Of a stretch of 64,000 bases of DNA, positions 4,754-25,183 are shown piece by piece (the stretch's first letter is position 1; the number at the start of each line of letters is the position of its first letter). A model generated the notes under the pieces. That model saw only the letters and a program-made list of their open reading frames with translations, was not told the DNA's origin and did not search any database. The stretch covers positions 86,234 through 150,233 of the forward strand of contig CAZBGZ010000003.1 of assembly GCA_964491925.1 (NCBI GenBank), in the 5' to 3' direction. The stretch is from an uncultured Candidatus Saccharibacteria bacterium. GTDB taxonomy: Bacteria; Patescibacteriota; Saccharimonadia; Saccharimonadales; JAGQNJ01. A program made the translations under genes and the position numbers.

Positions 4754-4782
4754 TTGACTATTTAAGCAATACATAGTAATAT
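4754..4782 (+). promoter_or_regulatory. Sigma70-type promoter giving a leaderless transcript
   Basis: TTGACT (4754-4759), 17 nt, TAATAT (4777-4782). The ATG at 4790 is only 7 nt after the -10 box and has no SD. Confidence 0.5.
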
Positions 4783-4789
4783 ATACGTA

Positions 4790-5449
4790 ATGTTTAATAA
4801 ATTTGTTTCGTTATTTTTTGTATCTGTTGCTTGTGCATTTATGACTTTAAGCCCAGGTATAGCTAGTGCATCTACTAAATCGCTTACAGCCGAGTCAAGC
4901 AGTTGTAGAGTCACTGCTACTGGCGCCACAGTTAGAAAAGTCCAGGCCAAAGTTGGTGTCGCCCAAGACGGAGTTCTAGGTCCAATAACCTGTAACGCGA
5001 TTAAATCCTACCAATGCACAAAAAACCTTTCTGTTGACGGAATCGTGGGCCCTAATACATGGGGAATAATGCAGGGCAATACACCGCCTCGTGGTGTGCG
5101 AATTTGTGCTGACCTGAATAACCAAAAACTATGGCTATCAAAAAATGGTGTTAGAACCTATAACGCCGAACGCATGCGATCTGGCGACCCAAGATTAAAC
5201 CAATCAGAAGCGACGAGAATTGGGAACCACAGCGTTTACTACAAAGATATTGATCATGTATCGTCAATATTCGGCTCTCCAATGCCGTATTCCATGTTCT
5301 TTTATGGCGGACAAGCCATACACGAATCTACTTTTAGCACGCCTGGTAGTCACGGGTGCATCAACGTTACTCATAACGACGCAAAGAAATTATGGAACAA
5401 CTCCCCAGTCGGCACTCCTGTTAGTGTTTGGGGTGTTAGGCCTGTTTAG
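4790..5449 (+). CDS. Secreted L,D-transpeptidase (YkuD) with peptidoglycan-binding domain
   Basis: Signal peptide (..SPGIASAS). PG_binding_1-like repeats (DGVLGPITCNAIKSYQ / DGIVGPNTWGIM). Catalytic SHGCINV motif (H..GC). Confidence 0.8.
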   Translation: MFNKFVSLFFVSVACAFMTLSPGIASASTKSLTAESSSCRVTATGATVRKVQAKVGVAQDGVLGPITCNAIKSYQCTKNLSVDGIVGPNTWGIMQGNTPPRGVRICADLNNQKLWLSKNGVRTYNAERMRSGDPRLNQSEATRIGNHSVYYKDIDHVSSIFGSPMPYSMFFYGGQAIHESTFSTPGSHGCINVTHNDAKKLWNNSPVGTPVSVWGVRPV

Positions 5450-23239: not shown

Positions 23240-23935
23240 ATGCAAAATGTAGCACCATACAATCAGTTCGCCCAAGATAAACTCGGCGTAACTTTTAAAG
23301 ATATTGCTTTGTTGGTCTTGGCTTTTACGCATCGATCGTATGTTAATGAGCACCGCAAAACTGTACAGGAGCACAATGAACGGTTGGAGTTTTTAGGCGA
23401 TGCAGTGCTGGAACTAGTTGTAACAGAATTTTTATATAGTAATTACGATGAGGCAGAGGGGATTTTAACCAACTGGCGCAGTAGCCTAGTTAGGACTGAG
23501 AGCATTGGTGACGCTGCGAAACGTAGTGATTTTGAACCGCTACTACGTTTGAGCCGGGGTGAAAAACGTGGTTCTGATAGGGCCAGAGCCCAGATATTAG
23601 CCAACACTTTTGAGGCGGTTGTTGGTGCTCTTTATTTGGACCAAGGTTACGAAGCTGCAAAGAACTTTATTACGAGCAGTTTATTGCCAACTTTTTCTGA
23701 CATCTTAGAGTCGGGTTCCTGGATGGACGCCAAGTCGCACTTACAAGAAAAAGCTCAGGCTGCCGATAATGCGACACCCGTTTACCGGGTTATGGAAGAA
23801 GAAGGCCCAGATCATGACAAGATTTTTACAGTTGGTGTTTATGTTAACGACAAGCTGATGGGGACGGGCTCTGGACCCAGTAAGCAGATAGGCCAACAAC
23901 AAGCGGCTTCCGAAGCACTAAAAAAATACCAATAG
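23240..23935 (+). CDS. rnc: Ribonuclease III
   Basis: Signature ERLEFLGDAVLE, plus a C-terminal dsRBD (...GSGPSKQIGQQQAASEALKK). Confidence 0.95.
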   Translation: MQNVAPYNQFAQDKLGVTFKDIALLVLAFTHRSYVNEHRKTVQEHNERLEFLGDAVLELVVTEFLYSNYDEAEGILTNWRSSLVRTESIGDAAKRSDFEPLLRLSRGEKRGSDRARAQILANTFEAVVGALYLDQGYEAAKNFITSSLLPTFSDILESGSWMDAKSHLQEKAQAADNATPVYRVMEEEGPDHDKIFTVGVYVNDKLMGTGSGPSKQIGQQQAASEALKKYQ

Positions 23936-23976
23936 TACTTTCGAGATTATTTTTCTTTCGATCTGTCGGCTCAATC

Positions 23977-24011
23977 TCCCTATTACTTTGTTCCGACAAA
24001 GTAATTAGGGA
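23977..24011 (+). other. 15-16 bp hairpin immediately downstream of rnc
   Basis: tccctattactttgt-tccg-acaaagtaattaggga (one bulged A). No T-tract follows, so it may be a processing site rather than a classical terminator. Confidence 0.5.
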
Positions 24012-24030
24012 ACTCTTGGCTATCCGTTTG

Positions 24031-24428
24031 TCTTGATATGACTTCCAGTCAATAGCTACAACAGCCTTGGACAATGCAAGCACCCCGAATAGTTCTCCAG
24101 TTTAATTATTCGGGGAAGTCCAAGTCCTATTTGTTGTAGCATTGACGAAGTCATTCAGGCCAAGCCGAAGGCCACCTCAATATGTAATAGTTATCTCTTT
24201 GCTGGCCAAAGGCCAGAAAAACACAGTCGACGAGTTAATTAGTTAATAAATGAAACATCCATAGGGTGTTTAACAAATAGAGTTGCCTCTGTATTTTCCT
24301 GAAAGACTACGTCAACACTACAACAAAAGAGACGAGGACTGTTTGAAGATACTCTATATGCCTAAACGGCATATAGAGTATCAAGTTCCACAGGCTGTTG
24401 TGGTGTTTGACTGGTAGTCTTGTCAAGA
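24031..24428 (+). ncRNA. Candidate large structured RNA of unknown class (alternative: MITE-like inverted-repeat element)
   Basis: No credible ORF. Closing helix of ~30 bp (24031-24066 with 24393-24428). Internal hairpin 24083-24115 (9 bp). 18-bp long-range helix 24130-24147/24310-24327. Perfect 15-bp hairpin 24348-24382. Strand is assumed from the flanking genes. Confidence 0.45.
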
Positions 24429-24542
24429 AAATACAGGAGCATGGCACTTTTGCATACTTTTGTTGCTACTTAGAAAAGTATGATGGAAAGTTTGTCCATG
24501 GGATATGAACAGTCTGATTAGCGGGCAAAAGTAATTGGGTAG

Positions 24543-24571
24543 TTGACAACAGAGGTGCTTATCTGTAAAAT
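24543..24571 (+). promoter_or_regulatory. Consensus-like sigma70 promoter for the rpsP operon
   Basis: TTGACA (24543-24548), 17 nt, TAAAAT (24566-24571). About a 55-nt leader with SD aaggaag before the ATG at 24632. Confidence 0.6.
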
Positions 24572-24631
24572 AAGCCAAAGATAGTTTTGTAAGTCTAATA
24601 ATCCACAAGGAAGAGAAGTTATAAAGAAGAT

Positions 24632-25183
24632 ATGTTAGCTATTCGTTTGCAAAGAACCGGCCGTAAAGGCAACGCCCAATATCGAGTAATCGTTCAGGAG
24701 GCTCAACGTACACCTACTAGTGGGCGGGTAGTTTATCGTCTAGGAAGCTATGACCCTCATGCAAAAACTTTTGCAGTCGATAAGGAAAAAGCAGAGTTTT
24801 ACCTCGGGCATGGCGCTCAGCCATCAGACCGGATCGTCAGATTGTTTAAAAATAACGGTGTCAAATTGCCCGATTGGGTTAAAATAAGCGAACCAATCAA
24901 ACGTACAGTTCGAAATCCTGAAAAGCTACGCAAGAATCAGCCAAAGGAAGAAAAACCAGCTGAAGCACCCGCTGAAGTTCTAGCCGAACAAGAAGAAACT
25001 GTTGCTGAAGAGCCTGTCGCCGATAATGCCGTCACAGCTGTAGAACCAACAGAAGTTGCAGCTGAAAACGTTGATACAGAAGCTGAGCCAGCCGTAGAAG
25101 AAGTTGCTTCAGCTGAAACTACGACTGACGAAGTAGCGCCAAAAACAGAAGAAAAACCTGCTGAAGCTGACTCAAAAGCCTAA
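24632..25183 (+). CDS. rpsP: 30S ribosomal protein S16 with a long acidic Ala/Glu/Pro-rich C-terminal extension
   Basis: N-terminus MLAIRLQRTGRKGNAQYRVIV.. is the bS16 signature. Residues ~100-183 are low complexity (EEKPAEAPAEVLAEQEE...). Confidence 0.9.
   Translation: MLAIRLQRTGRKGNAQYRVIVQEAQRTPTSGRVVYRLGSYDPHAKTFAVDKEKAEFYLGHGAQPSDRIVRLFKNNGVKLPDWVKISEPIKRTVRNPEKLRKNQPKEEKPAEAPAEVLAEQEETVAEEPVADNAVTAVEPTEVAAENVDTEAEPAVEEVASAETTTDEVAPKTEEKPAEADSKA

Follow-up and report, generated by a model that had tools for sequence, protein, structure and literature searches.

A palindromic insertion, probably a non-autonomous mobile element, between rnc and rpsP in a Saccharibacteria genome

Results

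The DNA analysed here, referred to as the window, is a 64-kb stretch of a Saccharibacteria (TM7) genome with 42% GC, in which the RNase III gene rnc (23240-23935, + strand) and the S16 gene rpsP (24632-25183, + strand), both assigned with Pfam, are separated by a spacer of 696 nt with 39% GC. The subject of this report is an element within that spacer, at positions 23966-24483 of the + strand, whose limits are set by homology to a second copy on a metagenome contig (RRZU010854268.1, hereafter L110; positions 10815-10324, minus strand). Its right boundary is sharp, directly after GTATGA; on the left, weaker similarity may reach about 23955, and the element ends read ATTACTTTGT...ACAAAGTAAT. A first-pass annotation, made from the sequence alone, had described the spacer as devoid of a credible open reading frame (ORF), and this was borne out, the longest open frame being 68 codons and no start-to-stop ORF being common to the window copy and its L110 homologue. 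Two frames are open across the second hairpin unit (unit B, see below) in both copies, because this unit is near-identical between them. A pseudogene or decayed coding sequence was considered and is ruled out by the absence of a conserved frame together with the extreme self-complementarity. No terminator-like site was found within 23500-25000.

The dense self-pairing of the spacer is far beyond chance. The minimum free energy (MFE) of its + strand is -255.5 kcal/mol, compared with -167.7 +/- 5.2 for dinucleotide shuffles (z -16.8), that of its - strand is -229.2 kcal/mol (z -10.7), and its two large inverted repeats are the first- and second-ranking ones of the whole 64-kb window. The helices proposed in the first-pass annotation are all present where it had placed them: a closing helix pairs 24028-24067 with 24392-24431 (40-nt arms, 80% complementary), a long-range helix pairs 24117-24175 with 24282-24340 (59-nt arms, 73% complementary), and two hairpins are formed by 24083-24115 (hpA; 12-nt arms, 92% complementary) and 24348-24382 (hpB; a perfect 15 bp). 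The hairpins said to flank the structure were likewise recovered, at 23977-24011 and 24453-24482. An alternative pairing of 24283-24300 with 24423-24440 had been taken for a pseudoknot or a switch; the pairing itself exists (24284-24302 with 24423-24441, 84% complementary), but it is simply the base of unit B. When the element is folded by itself, the + strand is again the more stable one, both in the window copy (-216.0 vs -199.0) and in L110 (-228.2 vs -217.2), and unit A, the first hairpin unit, contains four G.U pairs on the + strand versus 0-1 on the - strand, unit B being symmetric in this respect. The better folding of the + strand and the G.U bias of unit A weakly favour a single-stranded + species, be it RNA or single-stranded DNA.

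Underlying this structure is a single repeat. One sequence of ~57 nt is repeated in all four long arms, in alternating orientation, namely as R1 (24017-24073, + strand), R2 (24122-24175, - strand, inverted), R3 (24281-24336, + strand) and R4 (24386-24443, - strand, inverted), and a four-copy nhmmer profile recovers all of them at E 1e-11 to 1e-13 (1.4e-13, 9.5e-12, 2.2e-11 and 2.9e-13, respectively). A CTAC/GTAG motif is carried by each copy, and the internal palindrome of the repeat is only 3-5 bp. Since the four arms are copies of one repeat, the branched fold is only one of two possible pairings. In the nested pairing, which is the four-way junction of the first-pass annotation and the MFE structure of the window copy, R1:R4 encloses hpA, R2:R3 and hpB. 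In the tandem pairing, R1 pairs with R2 and R3 with R4 to give two hairpins of ~165 nt and ~60 bp each, unit A (R1-hpA-R2, 24014-24176) and unit B (R3-hpB-R4, 24274-24448), with hpA and hpB at their respective tips. Nested insertion of one MITE (miniature inverted-repeat transposable element) into another of the same family was ruled out as the origin of this arrangement, the polarity of the inner R2/R3 being opposite to that of the outer R1/R4.

The setting of the element was examined in 80 related loci retrieved with the RNase III protein, almost all from Saccharibacteria metagenome-assembled genomes and amounting to ~0.7 Mb. Both rnc and rpsP are present, with synteny kept, in 74 of the 80, and the spacer between them ranges from 48 to 2310 nt, being 79-133 nt in most loci and 48 nt in the closest relative with an assembled junction (L001, 84% Rnc identity). 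Where the spacer is short, a conserved promoter, GTTGACAnCAGrGGyGCTTATCTGTAAAATA, lies against the rnc stop codon or overlaps it, and the -35 box of this promoter can even be contained in rnc. The corresponding rpsP promoter of the window (TTGACA-17-TAAAAT, 24543-24571, + strand, 11/12 consensus matches) lies outside the element and is intact downstream of the insert; 24542-24572 is the only stretch of the spacer that resembles the relatives, at 76-97% identity in 53 loci. No counterpart of the element was detected by blastn or nhmmer in any of the 80 loci, and most of the long spacers hold unrelated ORFs. Because the spacers of relatives are without a counterpart and only the rpsP promoter is conserved, the ~606 nt from the rnc stop codon to the promoter is, on this comparison, a lineage-specific insertion. 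A weak nhmmer match to one locus (L057) was discarded, as it spans the conserved promoter and leader and the locus has no match to the repeat profile. In a close relative with 98% Rnc identity (L052, CAZBSC010000025.1) the contig stops at Rnc residue 173, inside rnc, and the region of the element is therefore not assembled there.

A scan of metagenomes with a degenerate pattern of the repeat returned 24 loci, about the number expected by chance, among which only L110 had at least two matches. By blastn, its positions 10815-10324 (minus strand) align with window positions 23966-24483 at 85.7% identity over 519 nt with all four repeats kept, and there is no further similarity between the 14.7-kb L110 and the 64-kb window. 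L110 derives from a Saccharibacteria genome, as homologues of its 346-aa protein are annotated Saccharibacteria, and its copy stands between a DUF5661 gene and a Sigma70_r4/HARE-HTH gene, in a neighbourhood that also has an LD-carboxypeptidase and a peptide deformylase. Orthologues of the L110 locus (85-87% protein identity) are without the element and have different genes upstream, so that sites without the element occur in relatives of both loci; nor was a further copy found in four extra loci around orthologues of the gene for the 346-aa protein. At both sites a stop codon precedes the element, the next gene has its own promoter downstream of it, and the element's + strand is the sense strand of both neighbours. 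The L110 copy is without 27 nt of the linker between the hairpin units (window 24229-24255) and has a different small hairpin there, GAGTA-ATTAA-TACTC; no other part of the element is as weakly constrained as this linker.

Which of the two pairings is conserved can be judged from these copies, the pair counts resting on a two-sequence alignment of the window copy with L110. Both the tandem and the nested pairing stay at least 95% formable in both copies. The MFE structure of L110 is the tandem fold, and constrained folding of L110 gives -179.4 kcal/mol for the tandem and -137.2 kcal/mol, some 42 worse, for the nested arrangement, compared with -169.5 (tandem) and -184.5 kcal/mol (nested) in the window copy. 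Of 48 pairs in unit A (R1:R2), four have changed on both sides with pairing kept (C-G to U-A, A-U to G-C, U-A to G-U and G-C to A-U), one has changed on one side with pairing kept and one is broken. The corresponding figures for the 37 pairs of R1:R4 are zero, four (three shifts to G.U and one U.G-to-U-A) and two, and for the 44 pairs of R2:R3 zero, two and four. If the partners are slid by 1-3 columns, the both-sided changes drop to 0-1. In unit B, the 40 pairs of the R3:R4 helix are all invariant between the copies. Substitutions affect 6.5% of paired versus 15.9% of unpaired columns (Fisher p 0.002), and in the right half all eight are unpaired (0/145 paired versus 8/65 unpaired columns, p 6e-5).

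The fold energies of L110, the both-sided changes and the avoidance of stems by substitutions thus agree, and they suggest, within what two sequences can tell and short of proof, that the hairpin stems are under purifying and compensatory constraint, that the conserved fold is the tandem hairpin pair, and that the multi-way junction is a thermodynamic alternative specific to the window copy. The four-way junction architecture of the first-pass annotation is consequently not conserved, the tandem fold being better in L110 and both-sided changes occurring in R1:R2 and in neither R1:R4 nor R2:R3. It should be noted that concerted evolution of the palindrome arms could mimic part of the compensatory signal; the bulges that are conserved between R3 and R4 speak against a simple homogenisation of the arms.

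Comparison with known RNA families gave no assignment. At gathering scores, Rfam 15 has no match to the element in a search of the whole window, and at E<=10 neither copy has a relevant one, the hits being chance matches to snoR101, Plastid-ndhJ and tsr26 at E 1.8-8.9. Covariance models of RNase P RNA (RF00010/RF00011) match neither at gathering scores nor at E<=10, ROOL, GOLLD, OLE, raiA, HEARO, tmRNA, 6S and SRP give no match at E<=10 in either copy, and a tRNA/tmRNA scan found none. A motif that had been likened to the CR-I region of RNase P, GGGGAAGTCC, is held by hpA and proved to be its 3' strand running into the base of unit A. The principal proposal of the first-pass annotation, a large structured RNA of ~400 nt, is not supported, as there is no Rfam family, rnc-rpsP loci do not in general carry the element, and the junction is not conserved.

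Assembly graphs provide some further information on the copies. A Logan contig (L113) that is 99% identical to L110 and was seen in four samples starts exactly k-1 = 30 nt inside the right boundary of the element, that is, exactly 30 nt inside the end marked by the terminal hairpin (24453-24482, + strand). This is a hint that the de Bruijn graph met a sequence with more than one right-hand flank in that metagenome, and thereby of more copies. For the strain of the window, two independent Logan assemblies stop at 24339, and 24439 is where a third contig starts (L081, L082, L083). These contigs match 23936-24339 and 24439-24631 without a single mismatch, and the 99 nt missing from them correspond to hpB and R4. 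The breaks suggest either a population variant (indel or replacement) or an extra, near-identical copy of the R3-R4 core. An inverton fits less well than a deletion or replacement variant or a further copy, as inverting 24340-24438 would move the branch point by one base.

The remaining parts of the element are small hairpins. At its left end, hp0 is a 15-bp stem (23977-24011, + strand) with a single both-sided exchange, U-A to C-G, in comparison with L110. The stem of hpA (+ strand) is invariant, only the loop differing in L110, and hpB (+ strand) is identical in both copies. The linker holds the hairpins CTGGCC-AAA-GGCCAG (24202-24216, + strand), with an invariant stem and a loop that is altered in L110, and AAACATCC-ATA-GGGTGTTT (24253-24271, + strand), in which a U.G pair of the window is U-A in L110. 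Outside the element, window-specific filler lies between the rnc stop codon and the left end (23936-23965, + strand), with weak L110 similarity in its last ~10 nt only and no counterpart in the spacers of relatives, and again between the right end and the rpsP promoter (24484-24541, + strand). The latter contains AAAGTAATT at 24528-24536 (within CAAAAGTAATTGGGTAG), a partial third copy of the 3' arm of hp0 (23998-24006); this partial copy stands just before the rpsP -35 box and outside the region common with L110, and 24528-24536 and hp0 together form a direct repeat that flanks most of the insert.

Two further observations concern the rnc-rpsP junction of the relatives. The 17-nt spacer of the rpsP promoter (CAGrGGyGCTTATCTG, with a small CAGA...TCTG inverted repeat) is also conserved, a core of ~30 nt being 86-97% identical in 53 loci, which suggests an operator or an extended promoter element. 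Moreover, the junction is hypervariable among the 80 loci (L001-L080), its cargo differing by lineage and including an opposite-strand ABC-transporter-like ORF (L002), a GMP-synthase-like ORF (L003) and secreted or hypothetical proteins elsewhere, labels that are given by sequence reading only. In another Saccharibacterium (L073) this junction contains an unrelated insert of ~600 nt at 4768-5368, bounded by a perfect 16-nt inverted repeat (AACAAGAACAGGTAGT / ACTACCTGTTCTTGTT), in a spacer of 831 nt with a longest open frame of 82 codons and a folding z of about -5; this insert is possibly a different MITE.

Discussion

We propose, with a probability of roughly 0.55, that the element, which lies after the rnc stop codon and before the intact rpsP promoter, is a non-coding, non-autonomous, MITE-like palindromic mobile element of ~520 bp. 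It behaves as a small mobile hairpin element because it is found also beside unrelated genes in another Saccharibacteria genome, and in size and composition it resembles a MITE, with ~520 bp, 39% GC in the spacer, both copies intergenic and no conserved ORF. A MITE-like origin had been offered by the first-pass annotation as an alternative; it now fits better, given the insertion and an 86%-identical copy in an unrelated context, although only one further copy was found and the evidence for a target-site duplication is ambiguous. Strict membership in the MITE class is not established.

Several observations weigh against this proposal. The known copies number two, one per genome fragment, and blastn and the nhmmer profile found no further copy in the 64-kb window or in the ~0.7 Mb of related loci. 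Viral contigs, phages and plasmids also yielded none, blastn against phages and plasmids giving no similarity and three pattern scans of viral contigs only chance single matches. Searches for additional copies through spuriously annotated ORFs were equally unproductive, the minus-frame peptide giving no candidates and the plus-frame peptide, compared with 1.84 billion representatives, a single match to a repetitive 2024-aa protein at 23% identity that was judged spurious. Clear terminal inverted repeats are not evident at the outermost ends; inverted repeats are strong internally (40-59 nt), and the ends at 23966 and 24483 share only the short hairpin motif ATTACTTTGT/ATACTTTTGT. There is no target-site duplication at the window copy, and the L110 flanks carry TTTCCAAAGAAC / TTTCTAAAGAAC, an ambiguous 12-nt direct repeat with one mismatch that lies 20-40 nt outside the homology boundaries. 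Finally, no transposase is linked to the element, ~88 nt of the window insert (23936-23965 and 24484-24541) are not common with L110, and the strand asymmetry of the element is weak.

The mobile element would have moved, or been transferred, between chromosomal intergenic sites of Saccharibacteria, in trans by some transposase or by recombination, and its hairpins may be what selection maintains. It is probably transcribed as the 3' untranslated region (UTR) of rnc, a prediction made because there is no terminator-like site between rnc and the element and because the orientation is sense at both sites. The two long hairpins could then serve as a 3' structural block, acting either as terminator or stabiliser or as a substrate of RNase III, or in both roles, and by analogy with Correia and ERIC elements they would insulate rnc from the rpsP operon. 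Transcripts of MITEs do fold into stable stem-loops, RNase III cuts Correia elements, and ERIC elements change how stable the upstream mRNA is (PMC10969869, PMC2649163). Since the L110 copy stands behind a DUF5661 gene, coincidence is the simplest account of the closeness to the gene for RNase III itself. A more ambitious version, which we hold to be quite improbable, is that of a mobile RNA module with four interchangeable arms and mutually exclusive folds, serving as a transferable transcript-end/RNase III cassette in the ultra-small genomes of the candidate phyla radiation, or else of the first hairpin-dependent family of non-autonomous transposons in Saccharibacteria.

A different reading is a free-standing gene for a structured non-coding RNA of a new class, spread horizontally and acting in trans or as a ribonucleoprotein scaffold, with the helices as its functional architecture. 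In its favour are the extreme folding (z -16.8), the greater stability of the + strand in both copies, the compensatory transitions and the avoidance of stems by substitutions, the same sense orientation to the neighbours at both sites and the lack of a conserved ORF. We nevertheless find such a gene unlikely: nothing in Rfam matches it, neither a promoter nor a terminator dedicated to it was detected, the multi-way junction lacks conservation, and near-perfect helices of ~60 bp built from one repeat in four copies typify palindromic repeats and not compact tertiary folds. It would, moreover, be an RNA gene without a counterpart in 80 related rnc loci and extremely rare in databases. A lower likelihood still attaches to a host cis-regulatory, long double-stranded 3' UTR by which RNase III would autoregulate rnc or part rnc from the rpsP operon, under selection at this locus, a reading prompted by the position directly after rnc with no terminator-like site between. 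RNase III cleaves long double-stranded RNA of the kind that hairpins of ~60 bp provide. The two present here would suit the enzyme, their stems are under apparent constraint and Correia elements provide a precedent (PMC2649163), but the L110 copy follows a DUF5661 gene and not rnc, and related rnc-rpsP loci are without a counterpart.

The hairpins might alternatively be read on one DNA strand, as in single-stranded DNA mobility of the palindrome-associated, IS200/IS605-derived or REP/BIME-RAYT type. Subterminal hairpins at both ends without clear terminal inverted repeats or a target-site duplication, alternating repeats that resemble the organisation of BIMEs, the strand-biased tolerance of G.U (G.T) pairs in unit A and the CTAC/GTAG motif in each repeat copy all speak for this mode, which we regard as more doubtful than either of the preceding explanations in that neither copy has an HUH or RAYT transposase gene linked to it, the 57-nt repeat is not itself a REP-like palindrome of 20-40 nt, the copy number appears very low where REPs number in hundreds, and the two left junctions show no conserved target tetranucleotide. 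A chimeric palindrome or other assembly artefact, to which the breaks of same-strain Logan assemblies at 24339/24340 and 24438/24439 could point, is highly improbable, as mismatch-free Logan contigs cover the repeats R1 to R3 as well as the inner inverted repeat with its two arms, and as the independent metagenome contig L110 matches the element and L113 its last ~30 nt.

The structure is real and unusual, and its explanation is of an ordinary kind. Saccharibacteria genomes are tiny and streamlined, and descriptions of small non-coding mobile repeats in this group are lacking; a full-text literature search combining Saccharibacteria with "miniature inverted-repeat" returned no paper. Situated between a ribosomal-protein operon and the gene for RNase III, a constrained hairpin element would be useful as a marker of recent DNA mobility in Saccharibacteria, and it could modify 3'-end formation or the stability of upstream mRNA. 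The main value of the present analysis is that it keeps the region from being annotated as a new class of large RNA; no long-standing question is opened by it.

Among known systems, the large RNAs of Rfam (RNase P, ROOL, GOLLD, OLE, raiA, HEARO) share with the element a length of several hundred nucleotides and many helices, but its helices are long, near-perfect and repeat-derived, its junction topology is not conserved, and at E<=10 no match to these families exists. The pneumococcal BOX, RUP and SPRITE repeats are likewise small modular repeats that cluster and form stable stem-loops, some of them terminator-like (PMC3049150, PMC10969869), although their modules and sequence are different, BOX having the order boxA-boxB-boxC where four inverted copies of one module are found here. 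As in REP/BIME clusters, copies alternate within one intergenic cluster downstream of a gene and adjacent copies pair; the repeat, however, is 57 nt and not 20-40 nt long, it lacks a strong palindrome, and neither a high copy number nor a RAYT gene is in evidence. A further parallel is offered by MITEs that are palindromic over their full length and whose transcripts form hairpins, such as Correia/CREE of Neisseria, ERIC/YPAL of enterobacteria and QMITE of Coxiella. The element differs from Correia, ERIC and QMITE in having no sequence relationship to them, in combining two units and accessory hairpins in one block of ~520 bp, and in that end repeats and duplication are not demonstrated for its two known copies, which have no partner insertion sequence. 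In common with the palindromic MITEs it is small, non-coding and intergenic, and situated at the 3' end of a gene. Like Correia, ERIC and QMITE, it is built of units (here ~165 nt) that each form one long imperfect hairpin and it occurs in differing gene contexts, and by analogy with them it would be expected to be co-transcribed and to act as an RNase III substrate or in mRNA stability (PMC10969869, PMC2649163, PMC3184786).

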